64,000 bases of DNA from Candidatus Uhrbacteria bacterium (GTDB taxonomy: Bacteria; Patescibacteriota; Patescibacteriia; UBA9934; GWF2-40-263): assembly GCA_016205975.1 (NCBI GenBank), contig JACQSK010000007.1, positions 5,328 through 69,327 of the forward strand, written 5' to 3'. Under the pieces are notes generated by a model that saw only the letters and a list, made by a program, of their open reading frames with translations, was not told the origin of the DNA and did no database searches. Positions 6,938-39,655 of this stretch are shown in pieces (position 1 is the first letter of the stretch; each line of letters opens with the position of its first letter). The position numbers were made by a program, and so were the translations under genes.

Positions 6938-8445
6938 CTAGGCCATGCGCCTGCGGGCGGCCTCGAGCTTCTGGCGGCGAGCGAGCTCGCTCCACTGGTC
7001 GGCGAGCCACTCGACGAACTTCGTCACCGTGCGCCACAGGGCCATCTTGTGGATGTGTCCGTCGGTGTAGCGCTTCTTGCCTTCCACCTCGATCACCTCG
7101 GGGTGGGCGACGTGGAGCTTCGCCTTGTACTCGAGCAGGAGGCGGCCCCAGTGTGTGCGGTCGCTCTGCCGGTTGAACTGGTCCGCGAGCAGATACAGCG
7201 CCTGCCTCGCGTCCGGGTGCCAGTTGGCGGGCTGGCCTGCACGGCGGCGGGGGAACTCCCATCCTCCATGACGGCTACGCCACAGAACATCTTGAGCTTG
7301 GCCTGGGTGGCCTTGCGCGCGCGGTGCCGGAGCTTGGAGCGCTCCTCATGGCACGCGACGGCACGCTCGAGCAGGGCGGCCTGCTCCGGTCGCCTGTTCT
7401 TCGCGCACCAGGAGGCGACGCGTTGCAGGGTCTGGAACTCGCTGTTCCCCAGCTGGACGAAGCGCTTGAGTTCCTGGAACCTCGCCTCGCGCTCCAGCCG
7501 GGTGGACTCCTCGTAGAGGCTGTCCATCCGCGCCTGGTTGGGTTCGACCATGAACCGCTCGATCCCGCCGATCGCGGAGATGAGCCTTCCCGCGAGCGCG
7601 GGGCCGATGCCCGAGACATCCTCCAAGATGTGCTGCCACACCTGGGTGTTCTTCACGGCGCGGTCGAGCTCCTTGAACCGCGCGGCCTCCTCTTCCTGGA
7701 GCGCCAGGTAGATGCGGTCGTTGGCCTTGAACTCGTTGAACGCGCGTTCGATGTCGAGCTCGGCGAAGTCCTGCTCGGCGCACAGCACCTGGCCCACGAG
7801 GGCTCGGTGCAGGCGCTGTTCGCAGGCGATACGACCCTTCATGGCGTCGATGCGCAGAGCCTGGCACTCGCGCACCCAGATGATGCGCCGTGTGTTCACC
7901 GTCACCTCGTGGAAGAGGCTGGGCTTGTCGCGCGCGAGCTGCGCCAACAGCTTGGCGTCCTCGTCCTTCTCGCCGTGGCGTTCCCGCTTGAGCTCGAAGG
8001 GCGGAAGGCGCAGGACCTTGGCACTCACGCGCTCACCCTGCTTGGACAGGGCGAAGGCGAGCCGGTCTCCCGAGCCGCCGAGCGACATCCCGACGACGTC
8101 ACCGCGCTGGAGGCCGTCGAAGGTGATGGGAACCTTGGTGGCGACCTGGGTCTTGCCGTCCTGCTCGCGCAGGTGCACCTGGTTGAGCTTCTCGACGTCC
8201 TCGGTCTTCTTCACCGTACGCCACTTCACGTGACGTGGGTTGAAGTCTGCGAGGCTGTCTTCGGGCGCGATGTCACGCCAGGCGATGGGGAAGCGACCGC
8301 GCACCCAGTCGAGCTCGGCGTTGTCGTCCTCCAGCTCGTAGGTGTCCTCACGCCCGCCGTCGATGACGGTCATCTGGGTGGGACGCGCTTCTCCTTCCTT
8401 GGTCTTCTTGACCCGGTGTCGGACACCGATGAACCTCTTGTTCAC
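6938..8445 (-). pseudogene. IS110/Nop-domain TIGR-associated (Tas-like) protein, ~502 aa if a 1-nt frameshift near 7258 is corrected
   Basis: GTG start with AGAGGGAG SD; RuvC-like FIGVRH..VGMSLGG..KDEDAKLLAQL; coiled coil; VSGIGPALAGRLISAIGGIERF..KLKMFCGV; -1 frame continues FPRRRAGQPANWHPDARQALYLLADQF..HIHKMALWRTVTKFVEWL to TAG 6938, then a terminator. Confidence 0.8.
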
Positions 8446-8575: not shown

Positions 8576-8992
8576 GCCATGCAACTGCTCCGACGTCGTT
8601 GACATCGTCATGTGCGCACAGCGGGAATCGGGCAGCCACACGGTCGTCTCTCGACAGCGTATTGTTCGCCCGATGGGGGAGAGTGACATTCGTCCATTCG
8701 TCTTTCGACAAGGCCGACAGAGTCACTCGGGGAGTCGTGCACGCTGGTCCTGGTCTCTCGACAGTATCAATATCGCACGACGATGGCTCGACATTCATCT
8801 GATCGTCTTTCGACGGGTGGCGAGTCGTCGAGCTGAGAATCGGGCACTCCATAGTCCGTCTTTCGACAGCCGACCATGCGCCCGATGGGGAGGGTGACAC
8901 GCGAGCAATCATCTTTCGACAATCTCCCATTCGTCACTCGGGGAGCCGAGCAGACCCTCGGTCGTCTCTCAACACGACCTCCTGTGCTCGGC
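8576..8992 (-). ncRNA. Stem-loop TIGR-like guide array, 8 units with paired 9-nt spacers
   Basis: Units start (plus) at 8576, 8627, 8681, 8734, 8786, 8839, 8892, 8945: 7-bp stem, A, 9 nt, TCGTCT(T/C)TCGACA, 9 nt, 2 nt, complementary 7-bp stem; 4-6-nt linkers. Confidence 0.9.
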
Positions 8993-13382: not shown

Positions 13383-13784
13383 ATGTCTACCAACGACCTG
13401 TGGAACGAAGGATTGAAACTTGTTTCTTTCTGTCCCGTGTGCGAGACGCGCTACAACCCGATGGAGGCGCGCGCACTTTCAGGGGCAGGGGAGACGCAGC
13501 TCTTGCACGTGCAATGCCGCAAGTGTCAGAACTCCATTCTGGCGCTCGTGCATGTGAATCAGACAGGCGCCAGCTCCGTGGGGCTGTTGACGGACTTGGG
13601 GTTTGACGATGTCGTTCGTTTCCGCGCGCAACGCGTGGTGAGCATTGACGACGTGATCGAGGCACACCAATTTTTGGAAGAGGCGCACTGGGAGGAAGCG
13701 CTGGGCGTCGCGTATCGAGATCAGGTGACGCAGGTCATGAGGAAGCGGGAAAAACATTTTCAAGAACAGCGGGCAGCGCGGTAA
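13383..13784 (+). CDS. Zinc-ribbon hypothetical protein
   Basis: CPVC...CRKC; pyrimidine-rich leader before ATG 13383. Confidence 0.75.
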   Translation: MSTNDLWNEGLKLVSFCPVCETRYNPMEARALSGAGETQLLHVQCRKCQNSILALVHVNQTGASSVGLLTDLGFDDVVRFRAQRVVSIDDVIEAHQFLEEAHWEEALGVAYRDQVTQVMRKREKHFQEQRAAR

Positions 13785-13846
13785 TCGTCCTCGCCTTGAC
13801 TATTTTGTAGCGGTCTTGCACAATGGGGCCGCTATTCTATTTTTCT

Positions 13847-14536
13847 ATGAATACTCTCACTCTGGAAGCCCAAGCTCGAACGCAGAAAGGCCGTAAAACG
13901 AACACGCTGCGCGCCCAAGGGCTCGTCCCGGCGGTTGTCTACGGTTCTGGAACGGAGCCTCAGTCGATCGTGATCGATCGCAATCAGTTTGCCAAAATGT
14001 ACAAAGCCGCCGGAGAGTCTTCCCTTGTGGAATTGGTGATCGACGGCCATGATGCTTTGCACGTGCTCATCCATGACTATCAGATCGAGCCGCTGCGCGA
14101 CGAGGTGACGCACGTTGATTTTCAGTCTGTGGACATGAAGAAAGAAATCGAAGCCGAGATTCAGTTGAAGCTCGTGGGTGAGTCGCCGGCTGTGAAAGCC
14201 TTGGGCGGAACGCTCATGACGTCCGTGAACGAAGTGCGGGTGAAGTGTTTGCCTTCCAAGCTTGTGCGCGACATCGAAGTCGACATCAGCGCGCTCTCCA
14301 CCTTTGACGATGTGATCCGTCTGAAGGATCTCGTGATTCCGGAGGGTGTCGTCATCCTGGACGATTTGAACCTGTCCGTGGCCAGCGTTTCCGCGCCACG
14401 CTCTGAGGAAGAGCTGAAGGCCTTGGATGAAGCCGTTGTGGAAGACGTGGCTGCCGTGGCCGTGGAGAAGAAAGAAGAAGCACCGGCGGAAGGCGAAGAG
14501 GCCGCTGCTCCTGCTCAGAAGAATGAGAAAGAATAA
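13847..14536 (+). CDS. rplY: 50S ribosomal protein L25/CTC
   Basis: LRAQGLVPAVVYG, HVDFQSV, acidic tail. Confidence 0.95.
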   Translation: MNTLTLEAQARTQKGRKTNTLRAQGLVPAVVYGSGTEPQSIVIDRNQFAKMYKAAGESSLVELVIDGHDALHVLIHDYQIEPLRDEVTHVDFQSVDMKKEIEAEIQLKLVGESPAVKALGGTLMTSVNEVRVKCLPSKLVRDIEVDISALSTFDDVIRLKDLVIPEGVVILDDLNLSVASVSAPRSEEELKALDEAVVEDVAAVAVEKKEEAPAEGEEAAAPAQKNEKE

Positions 14537-16315: not shown

Positions 16316-17224
16316 TTATATGTGCACCTCGATCACTCGGTCATCCCCATGCAGATCTTTATGCGTCTCGAGTTTGGCGCTGGGGAAATTATGGAGGATG
16401 AGTTTTTCTGCCGCTTGGCGTTGCTCGGGGTCGATCTCGATCAACACGATGAGATCGCGGGGGAGGATCTTGCGGTGGTCACGCAGTTGGCGAAACAGTT
16501 CCCAGTACGCATCAAGTCCATCGGCACCGGCACGCAGAGCGATTTCTGGCTCGTGGCGCACCTCAGCTTGGAGATTGTCCATGCGAGCTTGCGATAGGTA
16601 AGGGAGGTTGGCTGTGAGTAAGAGCGTCTTAAATGGATAGACGGACGAGGTCTGCACATTTGTCTGACCTCGGATTGTCTTGAAAATGCGCACGATCGGC
16701 TCGGCAAGGTTGCCCGTCTGGAAGTCGACGGTTGTCTGAGGGACGAGGATATCGGCATTTTTTTTGGCGACTGCCAGGGCGTTTTCGTCGATGTCGACCG
16801 CGATGACAGGAAGATTCGTCTCCGAGGCAAGCGTGATAGCGATCGCGCCTGATCCCGTACCGAGATCCGCGATAAGGGTGCGCTCAGGATCCTTGTCCGC
16901 GAGAACTTTGATCGCCAGCTCAATCATCGTCTCGGTTTCTGGTCGTGGAATGAGGACGTGTTTATCTACAATGAAGTCACGTCCATAGAAGGCCTTCTTT
17001 CCGACCAGGTACGCCACAGGCTCCCGATCCTCACGCCGATCCACAAGTTCGAAGAATTTTTCTTCTTGGTGCGACTTGAGCTTGTCGGCGAAGTGCGCGA
17101 ACAGCCAGGCCTTGGAGGTGTCCAGACTGAAGGCAAGCAAAATTTCTGCGTCGAGCATGGGGGAGTCGACGCTGGCTTTGCGTAGTTTATTGTTGGCCCA
17201 TTGGAGGGCTTCCATGATGGTCAT
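16316..17224 (-). CDS. prmC: Release factor glutamine methyltransferase
   Basis: EPVAYLVG, VLIPRPETE, DLGTGSGAIA, ANLPY. Confidence 0.93.
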   Translation of the reverse strand: MTIMEALQWANNKLRKASVDSPMLDAEILLAFSLDTSKAWLFAHFADKLKSHQEEKFFELVDRREDREPVAYLVGKKAFYGRDFIVDKHVLIPRPETETMIELAIKVLADKDPERTLIADLGTGSGAIAITLASETNLPVIAVDIDENALAVAKKNADILVPQTTVDFQTGNLAEPIVRIFKTIRGQTNVQTSSVYPFKTLLLTANLPYLSQARMDNLQAEVRHEPEIALRAGADGLDAYWELFRQLRDHRKILPRDLIVLIEIDPEQRQAAEKLILHNFPSAKLETHKDLHGDDRVIEVHI

Positions 17225-17264
17225 AGGGAGGAGGGGGACAGAGGGCGGCAAAGGGGAGTATAGC

Positions 17265-17296
17265 AAAAAAAAGGACTCAGGCCTTAGCATGAGTCC
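17265..17296 (-). terminator. Intrinsic terminator of the candidate large RNA
   Basis: GGACTCA/TGAGTCC stem plus 8 T on the minus strand. Confidence 0.8.
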
Positions 17297-17986
17297 GAGT
17301 TTCCAACGGCGGAGGGGGTGGAAGGTGGAAACCTTGGCCTGGGAGATTGAGGCGCAAGCGTCTCGTTCAGATCCAGGTTTTTGGTCATGCGCCTTCCATC
17401 CCTCCGTCGCTCTCGGGGACGGCTTGGGTCGTCAGCTTTTGGTTATTACTGAAGACGTTTGCCCTCGTGATCTTCCTGTTGCGTTTAGCATCGCCATCCT
17501 TCCGAAGAAGAACCCTGTTGCGTTCAGGACTACCCGAAGGTAATCGAGAGACGCGACAGACGCTGCTTTTATAGCTGGCCCGACATTGCTGCCAAGCCCA
17601 GGGGTGTTCAGGAGTTTATCCTCGAGCCCTCATATGGTTCACCCGGAGTCGGCCTAGGCATTGCTGCGAGGCTTTCTCAGCGAGTTCCTTTTGAGGGGGT
17701 TGATCAACGTTACGAGTGGAGGTCCAGGATTTGGCGGCTGATGTTGTTCCCGTTCGTCCGGGGGAGAAAGTCACCTCTCAACCCTTTCCTTCAGGACACC
17801 AGCGGTGCCATGACTCTTAGCCACGGCCGTAGCCAGAGTGTCTGTCCCTTTGTCGATCGGCTGATCGAGAGTCGTTTCAGGCGAGTGCCAGCCGAAGCTG
17901 ATTCACGCCGTTCACGGCTCCAGGTTCGCGTCCTTGCGGACGCTAGGCCGGGGGTTTCAGCTTTCGCTTATCGCCATCCGACGGTA
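17265..17986 (-). ncRNA. Candidate large structured non-coding RNA (~720 nt), family unassigned
   Basis: No minus-strand ORF of 60 aa or more inside it; promoter and terminator; eight GNRA/UUCG/UACG hairpins all on the minus strand; long 3' rod. Confidence 0.7.
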
Positions 17987-17992
17987 ACGACC

Positions 17993-18021
17993 ATGTTATA
18001 GGATCAGAGAAAATGCGTCAA
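17993..18021 (-). promoter_or_regulatory. Sigma70-type promoter for the candidate RNA
   Basis: TTGACG-17-TAACAT; perfect DnaA box TTATCCACA at 18039-18047. Confidence 0.6.
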
Positions 18022-18038
18022 GGGCAGATACCCATAGG

Positions 18039-18704
18039 TTATCCACAGAGGCGCTTACGAGCGGCTTCCAGCTCTTGCGCGGTTCCCACTGGCAACCAGA
18101 AGTTCGCTTGAACGCCAGCGATCTGGCTGGTTTTTGCGAGCACGGCAAGCGTTTGTGGAAGTCCGAACTCGGTAAACTCGCTTACATGGATTTCAACAGG
18201 CGACACTTGAAAGAAAGAATCGTTGAGCAGGTAGGCGCCGCACACGGCATTGCGGCCAGGCGCGAGCTCTCTGAAGTGTCCTTGCTCGATCACGGCGGCG
18301 GCTTTGAGGTCATGATCCGACAGGTGATAGAGAAGAGCCAGGTCATGGGCACAGAGCCGTTCGAGGTCTTCTTTCCGATACAGGTCGTCGCCGTTGACCA
18401 CCAGGAACGGACGTCGGAGATGGCTGCGCAGCAAGTGAACCGCGCCGGCGGTTCCTGAGAGCGGTTCTTGGATCACGTAGCGGATGGGCGTGTTGCGCCA
18501 GGCCGTGCCCAGATATGCCATAAGGTCTTCACGCAGATGGTTCACAACCACAAACAACTCGTCGACATTCTCCGGCAGCGCTGAAAGCACATGCGCGATG
18601 AGTGGTTTCCCGCAGATGTCGATGAGCGGTTTGGGGGTTTCGTGCGTGAGAGGCCGCAGGCGCGCGCCTTTGCCGGCCGCGAGGATGACCGCTTGCATAC
18701 TCAA
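18039..18704 (-). CDS. Sugar-phosphate nucleotidyltransferase
   Basis: AVILAAGKGARLRPLT..PKPL, SGTAGA, VNGDD. Confidence 0.9.
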   Translation of the reverse strand: MSMQAVILAAGKGARLRPLTHETPKPLIDICGKPLIAHVLSALPENVDELFVVVNHLREDLMAYLGTAWRNTPIRYVIQEPLSGTAGAVHLLRSHLRRPFLVVNGDDLYRKEDLERLCAHDLALLYHLSDHDLKAAAVIEQGHFRELAPGRNAVCGAYLLNDSFFQVSPVEIHVSEFTEFGLPQTLAVLAKTSQIAGVQANFWLPVGTAQELEAARKRLCG

Positions 18705-19771
18705 GATTGTTCCAAACGCGCGGCCACCTCGGCTTTTTTCAGCGCGAGGATGATCGGTTCCAGCCCTCCGTTCATGATGGCCGTGATGTTGTGGAAGTTT
18801 TCCTGGATGCGATGGTCGGTCACGCGGTCCTGGGGGAAGTTGTATGTGCGGATTTTTTCCGAGCGGTCGCCGGTGCCGATCTGTCCGCGCCGCGCCTCCA
18901 CGCGTTCTTTCTGGATCCGCTCTTGTTCGCCGGCGTAGACGCGGGCGCGGATGATCGACAGCGCGCGTTCTTTATTTTGTTTGAAGCTGCGTTCTTCCTG
19001 GCAGTACACCATGATGCCGGTAGGCAGGTGCGTGACGCGCACGGCCGAGTAGGTCGTGTTCACGCTCTGGCCTCCCGCGCCTTGCGAGGTTGTGGCTTCG
19101 ATCTTCAAGTCCTCTGGACGGATTTTGATGTCGAGCTCCTCCACCTCCGGTAGGATCGCCACGGTGACAGTGGAGGTATGCACGCGGCCAGCCTTTTCCG
19201 TTTCCGGCACGCGCTGCACGCGATGCACGCCGCTTTCATATTTCAGCTGGCTGTACGCGTTCTCGCCCTTGATTTCAAAAATGACTTCTTTGTAGCCGCC
19301 CACGTCGTTTCGGTTGGTTGAGATAAGTTCCGTTTTCCACTTGTGCGCCTCGGCAAAAAGCGTGTAGCCGCGCATGAGCTCGGCGGCAAACAGCGAGGAC
19401 TCGTCGCCGCCCGCGCCCGCGCGGATTTCGACGATGATGCTTTTCTTGTCCATGGGGTCGGGCGGGATGAGTGCGACGGTCAGCTCCTGTTCCAGCGCGA
19501 GGATGCGCGGCTCCAAGAGAGTGAGTTCCTCCTGCATGAGCTCCAAGAGCTCGGTGTCTTTGGACTGTGCGAGCGCTGACTTGGCTTCTTCCCGGTCTGC
19601 GAGCGCACGCTCGTAGCGCGAGCCGATCTCGACGATTTCTTTTTCGTCTTGGTAGAGGGAGTTCACTTCGCGCAGTTTGCGCGGATCAGAAAGCGTCTCC
19701 TGAGCGCTGAGCTTGGATTCGAGTTCGGTCAGGCGCGCGCGGTGCGCGGTGAGTTGGTCGGTGAGAGACAT
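18701..19771 (-). CDS. prfA: Peptide chain release factor 1
   Basis: ESGVHRVQRVPET (PxT), GAGGQSVN, RTYNFPQDRVTDHR. Confidence 0.97.
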   Translation of the reverse strand: MSLTDQLTAHRARLTELESKLSAQETLSDPRKLREVNSLYQDEKEIVEIGSRYERALADREEAKSALAQSKDTELLELMQEELTLLEPRILALEQELTVALIPPDPMDKKSIIVEIRAGAGGDESSLFAAELMRGYTLFAEAHKWKTELISTNRNDVGGYKEVIFEIKGENAYSQLKYESGVHRVQRVPETEKAGRVHTSTVTVAILPEVEELDIKIRPEDLKIEATTSQGAGGQSVNTTYSAVRVTHLPTGIMVYCQEERSFKQNKERALSIIRARVYAGEQERIQKERVEARRGQIGTGDRSEKIRTYNFPQDRVTDHRIQENFHNITAIMNGGLEPIILALKKAEVAARLEQS

Positions 19772-39482: not shown

Positions 39483-39524
39483 GTTCGTTTTATGTTCGTA
39501 TGGTAGCCCGAACAAAAACCGAAC
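39483..39524. promoter_or_regulatory. Two candidate LexA operators (GTTC-N7-GTTC, GAAC-N7-GAAC)
   Basis: 39483-39497 and 39510-39524, directly upstream of lexA; DnaA box TGTGGATAA at 39537-39545. Confidence 0.6.
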
Positions 39525-39655
39525 GCAATAGATGAGTGTGGATAAGTCGTTTTGTGCACTGCACATCCCCATGTTGTCCGATGACAGGCGGAAAGCGGTT
39601 TGATATTCTGCTGGAGGAATTTGTTCATCCCCTCTGCGCCCTCCCCCTCCTCCCT

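Follow-up and report, generated by a model that had tools for sequence, protein, structure and literature searches.

A predicted large RNA gene of variable length behind a phased DnaA box at the prfA-prmC site of one Candidatus Uhrbacteria family

The 64,000-nt stretch of a Candidatus Uhrbacteria bacterium analyzed here (the window) contains, on the minus strand just after prfA, a gap between a nucleotidyltransferase gene and prmC that holds a stand-alone promoter-to-terminator unit (17986-17265). We consider it very likely that this unit is a real RNA gene. The comparative evidence indicates that it belongs to a real, previously uncatalogued RNA gene family, so far restricted to one Uhrbacteria family. 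As read from sequence, the predicted RNA has its own promoter and terminator, structure on one strand and a four-way junction with a 3' rod as the fourth arm, and its arms appear to have changed in length as extra-stable hairpins were gained, lost or duplicated.

Few classes of large structured RNA are known from bacteria, where such RNAs are rare: ribozymes, parts of the core machinery and unexplained cages. The RNA described here, up to 1.7 kb long, is retained in genomes of ~1 Mb, yet changes too fast for sequence and covariance searches; RNAs of this kind would escape standard pipelines. What sets it apart is a shape conserved without sequence, together with a phased DnaA box.

Predicted transcription unit and its fold

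The features of the unit are listed below (G, C and L numbers are our labels for genomes, contigs and loci).

17265..17986, minus strand: predicted RNA, ~722 nt, start placed 6-8 nt past the -10 hexamer
18039..18047, minus strand: perfect DnaA box, 17 nt upstream of the -35 hexamer, overlapping the stop codon of the upstream gene
17993..18021, minus strand: sigma-70-type promoter, -35 at 18021-18016 and -10 at 17998-17993, position kept in the family units
17871..17982, minus strand: 5' domain, first helix and tetraloop hairpins, of varying length among relatives, with a large insert in G002
17702..17866, minus strand: second domain, one long irregular stem (helices 3-11) that G001-G003 share
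17421..17617, minus strand: variable hairpin-rich insert on arm C, an arm of 33-229 nt in homologous junctions
17265..17296, minus strand: intrinsic terminator, 7-bp stem and U8, the stem (17296-17273) found in the fold and in the repeat scan and covarying in G001-G003

The minimum free energy (MFE) of the minus strand gave z = -4.83, with 0/20 shuffles as good, and that of the plus strand z = -2.48 (20 shuffles). Eleven hairpins with GNRA, UNCG or CUUG loops were counted in the sense direction, compared with four antisense and 1.4 in shuffles. This was the highest count among 18,434 700-nt genome windows (mean 1.5), and was equalled in just two further regions, a repeat array at another place in the window and a 4.2-kb stretch of contig C16 without open reading frames (ORFs), which may be rRNA. 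The longest ATG-started ORF within the unit encodes 84 amino acids; longer, overlapping TTG-started ORFs exist (155 amino acids, plus strand). A tRNA/tmRNA scan of the 64-kb window returned none. The source genome comprises 939 kb and is 94% complete.

A previous interpretation made from the letters of this DNA (the sequence-only reading) had listed eight minus-strand hairpins, all of which we found where it had placed them. Its promoter hexamers were not above chance when taken alone (one found vs 0.8 expected in shuffles), but the promoter recurs in relatives by position and sequence. The terminator that it described, a 7-bp stem followed by U8, was missed by a simple terminator scan and is present in both the fold and the repeat scan. 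Two repeats of 10-14 nt reported by it do exist in the window; their second copies, however, are not retained in G001-G003. Its suggestion of kink-turns was not supported, with the box C word present in only 4 of the 48 family units described below, although no systematic k-turn search was made. Altogether, the structured RNA had been noticed; the extreme variability in length and sequence had been missed, as had the DnaA box and the junction core.

Homologues and compensatory changes

The DNA query matched three of the four same-genus genomes at the same site, with 74-80% identity over aligned columns, and gave no other match among 60 relatives (3/36 family genomes). The same kind of search with RNase P RNA matched 68/72 family genomes; hence, what is kept is not the sequence. 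In the four-sequence consensus of 139 pairs, 94.6% of cells were paired and 19 pairs had changed on both sides, with 0/500 shuffles as high. Coming from four sequences and a structure derived from the same alignment, this covariation supports the fold without proving it. In an independent five-sequence cluster, 25/132 pairs had changed on both sides; two of its members (G007/G084) carry a duplicated block, and internal duplications were also seen in the units of G021 and G095. The sequence-only reading had proposed collecting homologues near prmC/prfA and examining their covariation, and the three same-genus homologues indeed carry compensatory changes.

Survey of the prfA-prmC site across the family

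The DNA upstream of prmC was compared in 70 of the 73 family genomes (G079 lacked a prmC match; G081 and G093 were not in the initial set). Of the gaps, 50 measured at least 400 nt, 13 no more than 60 nt and a single one 198 nt; six were unmeasured. A promoter-to-terminator unit was definable in 48/70 genomes, with a length of 520-1,723 nt (median ~740); the unit of G008 is 1,723 nt long and that of G074 554 nt. Six genomes with gaps of at least 400 nt that lacked the promoter pattern were left out of the 48; the ends are uncertain for five units without a detected terminator, the unit of G018 contains an N gap and that of G068 was over-long in the hairpin count. In five close relatives the stop codon of the nucleotidyltransferase gene overlaps the start of prmC.

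The 48 units could be aligned only inside genus-level clusters. Tetraloop hairpins in 49 sequences, including one metagenome copy, numbered 387 in the sense direction, 86 antisense and 86 in shuffled sequences. The most enriched words in the 48 units were UUCG, GCAA and CUUG loops, each together with the base pair that closes it best (units vs control: CUUCGG 97 vs 8, CGCAAG 90 vs 17, GCUUGC 37 vs 7).

Capping by extra-stable loops is the strongest signal in these units, and with the threefold freedom of length and the dispensability in some lineages it speaks for a bulk stable RNA, a nucleotide or phosphate reserve or a decoy for nucleases or toxins during growth on the host, for which folding stability alone would count. 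These bacteria make few nucleotides themselves. We nevertheless consider this explanation unlikely, as the covarying junction and rod base described below exceed bulk needs and the RNA is present in a single copy per genome where seen. Somewhat less likely again is an RNA-only multimer or cage like ROOL, GOLLD or OLE, held together by GNRA A-minor contacts and kissing loops. The size range and the GNRA loops agree with it, and the palindromic 4-mers GAUC and AGCU are enriched, words of a kind that form the OLE bridges according to a passage of PMC12286853. However, passages of PMC12286853 and PMC5737381 describe these classes as keeping one architecture, in phages near tRNA islands, whereas here the number and length of domains vary, UUCG caps dominate, the 11-nt receptor word occurs in 1/48 units and no viral copy was found.

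Four genomes without the RNA at the prmC site (G009, G020, G064 and G013) have DnaA-box promoters with hairpin-rich units at other loci, and we regard these as candidate relocated units, the rod-end word occurring only in that of G009. Among 40 genomes from other families of the order (37 measured), no such unit was found upstream of prmC, the site being empty, short or ORF-bearing, and ~35 DnaA-box promoters sampled in those families had only shorter units behind them. A metagenome pattern scan gave one match, nearly identical to G001. Viral pattern scans gave 0, 0, 5 and at least 120 matches, of which 5 + 80 were screened and none was convincing against the models. A GTDB-wide pattern for one rod type gave 49 matches, five of them real, all next to prfA or prmC. 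The searches of the class, GTDB, metagenomes and viruses returned nothing outside the family, with models that are narrow.

Clean presence or absence at one site and candidate units at other loci would also be expected from the relic of a mobile or self-splicing element, such as a group I or II intron or an insertion sequence (IS) guide RNA. This is largely refuted already and highly improbable: no intron model matched, none of the 48 units contains the domain V word, no ORF is associated, the unit has been retained for long at one site across many genera, and its own promoter and terminator leave no exons. Both introns were also tried as candidates in their own right and rejected, group II for want of an Rfam match and of any hit to a domain V regular expression (0/48 units), and group I for want of an Rfam match in a unit with its own promoter and terminator.

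Other structured sequences were observed around the site. In genus g8 (L070, L076, L078, L084), several more promoter-terminator units stand in a row with the RNA ahead of prmC, and the ends of some resemble degenerate tRNAs. The prmC gap of G064 (L086) holds a short reverse-transcriptase-like ORF, read by eye, followed by a structured non-coding stretch. In G017, G020, G009 and G034 (L059, L060, L073, L075 region), structured gaps of 450-600 nt lie upstream of prmC and have no DnaA-box promoter.

Four-way junction and 3' rod

The four helices meet in the window as follows.

17692..17699, minus strand: junction strand 1, 5' sides of helix A (17699-17698) and helix B (17697-17692)
17618..17632, minus strand: junction strand 2, 3' side of helix B (17632-17627) and 5' side of helix C (17626-17618)
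17408..17420, minus strand: junction strand 3, 3' side of helix C (17420-17412) and 5' side of helix D (17411-17408)
17303..17308, minus strand: junction strand 4, 3' sides of helix D (17308-17305) and helix A (17304-17303)
17305..17411, minus strand: 3' rod (arm D), 107 nt, addressed by rod models R1 and R2

A long unbranched stem of at least 30 pairs was found near the 3' end of 25/48 units, compared with 7/48 at the 5' end and 1/48 in the shuffle means. Across 19 sequences the rod base was 80% paired, with 31 cells changed on both sides vs 12 in shuffles. By eye, the rod D joins a short closing helix A and helices B and C in a four-way junction with nearly no unpaired bases; helix C is interrupted by a small A-rich internal loop, and the variable inserts sit on arms B and C.

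The junction was then examined in anchored tests, in which the rod base was fixed and the upstream sequence searched, with 40 shuffles per unit. The homologous junction was top-scoring in 19 of 27 tests, from eight genera, and 12 units beat at least 39/40 shuffles; in 11 of these the winning junction was the homologous one. In the predicted fold of the window, helices B, C and D already lie next to one another. They agree with G001 and G003, B showing a compensatory change, and forcing all four junction helices costs 2.5 kcal/mol relative to the MFE. The junction was recovered in the held-out G088 (69 vs at most 52), with the same strands in G086 and G091 and part of them in G087. For part of the family the junction thus has good support, while for the remainder it is unproven; we consider it quite probable that it is the true shared core.

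Rod model R1 recovered its training set and gave weak matches at the predicted rods of G027 and G032; it matched 6/151 order genomes, one of these being a weak match elsewhere. Rod model R2 found the held-out rod of G081 (E 6e-5) and not most other family units, and on 151 class genomes it returned the source genome only; both models are too narrow to show absence.

The sequence-only reading had suggested that the 3' rod might be 6S-like, and an RNA-polymerase-binding regulator related to 6S or Ms1, with the rod as its active part, would account for a long irregular 3' rod in so many units and for the lack of an RF00013 (6S) match elsewhere in the genome. We find this improbable. The RF00013 model gave no match at E up to 1 in five genomes (controls positive in 5/14), and the simple rods measure 86-127 nt vs 187 model positions. 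The rod resembles 6S and Ms1 in being long and irregular. However, 6S is a rod of ~180-200 nt whose own ends close it and whose center opens into a bubble, whereas the 107-nt rod described here is closed by the junction, as an arm of a much larger RNA, and no shared central bubble was seen in 20 folds. In addition, 6S RNA typically has the reverse timing of what a growth-linked promoter would give. After ndk (L151:2030-2300, contig C5) we observed a 258-nt promoter-to-terminator RNA whose ends pair, and this closed-end RNA is the better 6S-like candidate.

The small internal loops on arms C and D beside a perfect four-way junction also bring to mind a ribozyme or ligand-binding core, since the hairpin ribozyme has such loops on arms next to a perfect four-way junction. 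These junction-proximal loops recur, but their sequences are unconserved, with two columns invariant among 19 rods. No ribozyme or riboswitch of Rfam matched, and the relocated candidate units adjoin unrelated genes. We therefore regard such a core as very improbable.

A phased DnaA box upstream of the promoter

Thirteen exact DnaA boxes were counted genome-wide vs seven expected, and a box lies upstream of 6/273 promoter-like sites in the genome. An exact box precedes 42/48 family units, a share inflated by the loose box that was part of the promoter selection. Spacing was no selection criterion, and the box-to-start distances cluster at 42-44, 51-55, 61-64, 71-73 and 82-84 nt, with a 10-nt period (R = 0.85; 42 units, of which kin are not independent). 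A site confined to one helix face upstream of the -35 hexamer is typical of activators. Across the order, box-promoter pairs form a small set, the reversed control pattern giving at most one match per search; DnaA-box promoters also precede lexA in the window and an mraZ-like ORF in G013. An origin of replication at the locus was not supported: there is one DnaA box only and no skew switch, and box pairs lie on another contig. A word after the -10 hexamer was rejected as an RNA motif, as it also follows unrelated promoters and is rather a promoter/initiator feature. Control of the gene by DnaA is, in our estimate, fairly probable. As this would tie an orphan RNA to a known regulator, its timing is open to direct test.

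The operon interrupted by the unit is uninterrupted elsewhere. This would fit a reading in which only DnaA-controlled transcription matters, insulating prfA from prmC or acting through local supercoiling, with the RNA as a by-product. The strong one-strand selection for RNA-specific loops and the compensatory changes make this hardly credible.

Several other structured units lie behind DnaA boxes. A second structured RNA of ~410 nt was seen on contig C18 (~13490-13900, minus strand) behind two DnaA boxes and upstream of a DksA-like ORF, and G022 has a ~370-nt unit in the same DksA-like ORF context. In other families of the order, G042, G043 and G148 (L196, L197, L198) carry structured units of ~190-265 nt or more behind DnaA-box promoters, those of G042 and G043 having a 30-nt block in common. 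The lexA promoter (~39500-39545, minus strand) combines an upstream DnaA box with repeated GAAC words, possible LexA sites.

Proposed mechanism

Our tentative proposal is a stand-alone, DnaA-activated gene for a stable non-coding RNA that works by shape rather than by sequence and, coupled to replication, acts as a scaffold or sponge for a structure-specific protein. DnaA, bound on one helix face upstream of the -35 hexamer, would turn the gene on together with replication and division genes, and the RNA would accumulate while the cell grows on its host. The junction and rod would then dock a structure-specific nucleic-acid-binding protein. This is the least certain step, with an HU-type nucleoid protein as the leading candidate; the genome has two HU-family genes. 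The hairpin arms would add nuclease-resistant bulk and extra low-specificity sites. A binding platform recognized by its shape is suggested because a threefold length change and near-total sequence turnover are tolerated while junction and rod are kept. The natural series of 520-1,720 nt and the relatives that lost the RNA allow the question of a minimal core to be asked.

A number of points weigh against this proposal. The site is empty in 13/70 family genomes, and a promoter-pattern search elsewhere in five close g16 genomes with an empty site, G071, G072 and G075-G077, found no copy, and G074 and G019 of that genus do have the RNA; hence the RNA appears dispensable. DnaA boxes can also repress. 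The four- and five-sequence pair counts use structures derived from the same alignments, and the anchored junction tests rest on rods picked by eye. In the window, the anchored test ranked another, probably chance junction first (6/40 shuffles as high), and an unanchored search does not discriminate between real and shuffled sequences. When 30 units (29 besides the window, mostly held out) were scanned with a descriptor, most scored like shuffles and only G088 was clear. HU is nearly universal, so its presence is uninformative, and the precedent of an HU-bound nucleoid RNA, naRNA4, is contested by 10.64898/2026.03.23.713779.

Neighboring genes and other features of the window

The following features adjoin the RNA gene.

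18701-19771, minus strand: prfA (PF00472), preceding the nucleotidyltransferase gene
18039..18698, minus strand: nucleotidyltransferase gene (PF00483, PF03462), upstream neighbor
17257..17265, minus strand: extended -10-like site, a putative separate promoter for prmC downstream of the terminator, with similar words past the terminator in many relatives, by eye
16316..17224, minus strand: prmC (PF17827), downstream neighbor, outside the RNA

PrmC (16316-17224) is 91% identical to the copy of G074 (genus g16) and 66-69% identical to same-genus copies, whereas the RNA and the nucleotidyltransferase, unlike PrmC, are closest to their own genus; recombination just downstream of the RNA gene is possible. 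A dispersed pyrimidine-rich repeat with a ~10-nt period lies directly before start codons, at 17228-17255 and in many places of the genome. Elsewhere in the window, an array with a ~53-nt period and repeated hairpin words (8620-8975) lies upstream of a 450-amino-acid ORF (7093-8445, minus strand), whose best matches are the TIGR-Tas endonuclease (E 1e-14, below the cut-off) and IS110. Array and ORF are likely a TIGR-type guide array with its protein.

Comparison with known RNAs

A search of the window against Rfam at the gathering score gave no match, and up to E 10 the region gave two unrelated weak eukaryotic matches only; no relevant family was matched by the first 20 family loci. The Infernal-type check proposed in the sequence-only reading thus returned no known family. 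That reading had also seen no RNase P, tmRNA, signal recognition particle (SRP) or group II signatures, in agreement with our results: the RNase P RNA (108 bits) lies on contig C23 and the tmRNA on contig C13, neither at this locus, the RF00169 (SRP RNA) search was empty (0/5 genomes; controls positive in 13/14), and so was the domain V search. Its central claim, a large structured non-coding RNA of a possibly new class, is supported by the covarying homologues in three genomes, the units in 48/70 genomes and the lack of any OLE, ROOL, GOLLD, MISL, 6S or SRP match. The 224 motifs of an earlier motif survey are reportedly largely in Rfam. A literature search found no paper describing this RNA, with subscription papers and the supplement of the 224-motif survey (PMC5737381) largely outside its scope.

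Among the large RNAs, GOLLD (RF02032), ROOL (RF03087) and OLE (RF01071) are similar in being multi-stem orphans of 500-900 nt, and GOLLD, as PMC12286853 states, combines a conserved 3' part with a variable 5' part. Here, in contrast, the RNA sits at a chromosomal housekeeping site behind a DnaA-box promoter, reaches 1,720 nt and shows far lower sequence conservation. GOLLD matched 0/5 genomes at E up to 1, with no control genome reaching the cut-off. ROOL gave no match in the window, the family loci or the genomes, the genome search being weak alone as no control genome holds ROOL, and OLE gave only an 11-bit match at an unrelated place in G001. ROOL and GOLLD lie in phages or prophages near tRNA islands, the RNA described here at the chromosomal prfA-prmC site, and no real viral match was found among the 80 loci screened out of at least 120. 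MISL (RF03079, 751 model positions), named in two figure legends of 10.1101/2024.02.24.581671, is likewise large, independent and an orphan; its covariance model gave no match at E up to 10 in five genomes.

The protein-sponge RNAs CsrB and RsmY are variable in length and sequence, with many hairpins and a terminator, and in all of this the RNA described here resembles them. A sponge of the Csr type was rejected, with GGA words barely enriched (820 vs 724) and CsrA in 0/73 family genomes.

Two further systems bear on the proposed mode of action. According to passages of PMC8959179, CcnA of Caulobacter is a non-coding, cell-cycle-linked RNA with DnaA boxes in its gene, 182 nt long, located at the origin, activated by CtrA and pairing with mRNAs; here, one phased box lies upstream of the promoter and no pairing sequence is conserved. 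The naRNA4 / REP325 RNA of E. coli is described in PMC4550694 as a hairpin RNA binding HU by shape, and the likeness lies in this shape-binding model. It differs in consisting of short repeat-derived RNAs inside an operon, and its role in compaction is disputed. On the boldest reading, which we offer as a speculation rather unlikely to hold in full, the RNA would be the first example of a kind whose only defining feature is a small four-way-junction core with freely expanding hairpin arms. DnaA would switch it on so that it scales with replication, and in ultra-small cells it would belong to the nucleoid as a structural or protein-buffering component. It might also be one of several unrelated large RNAs, MISL among them, that DnaA controls and that do the same job in different phyla.
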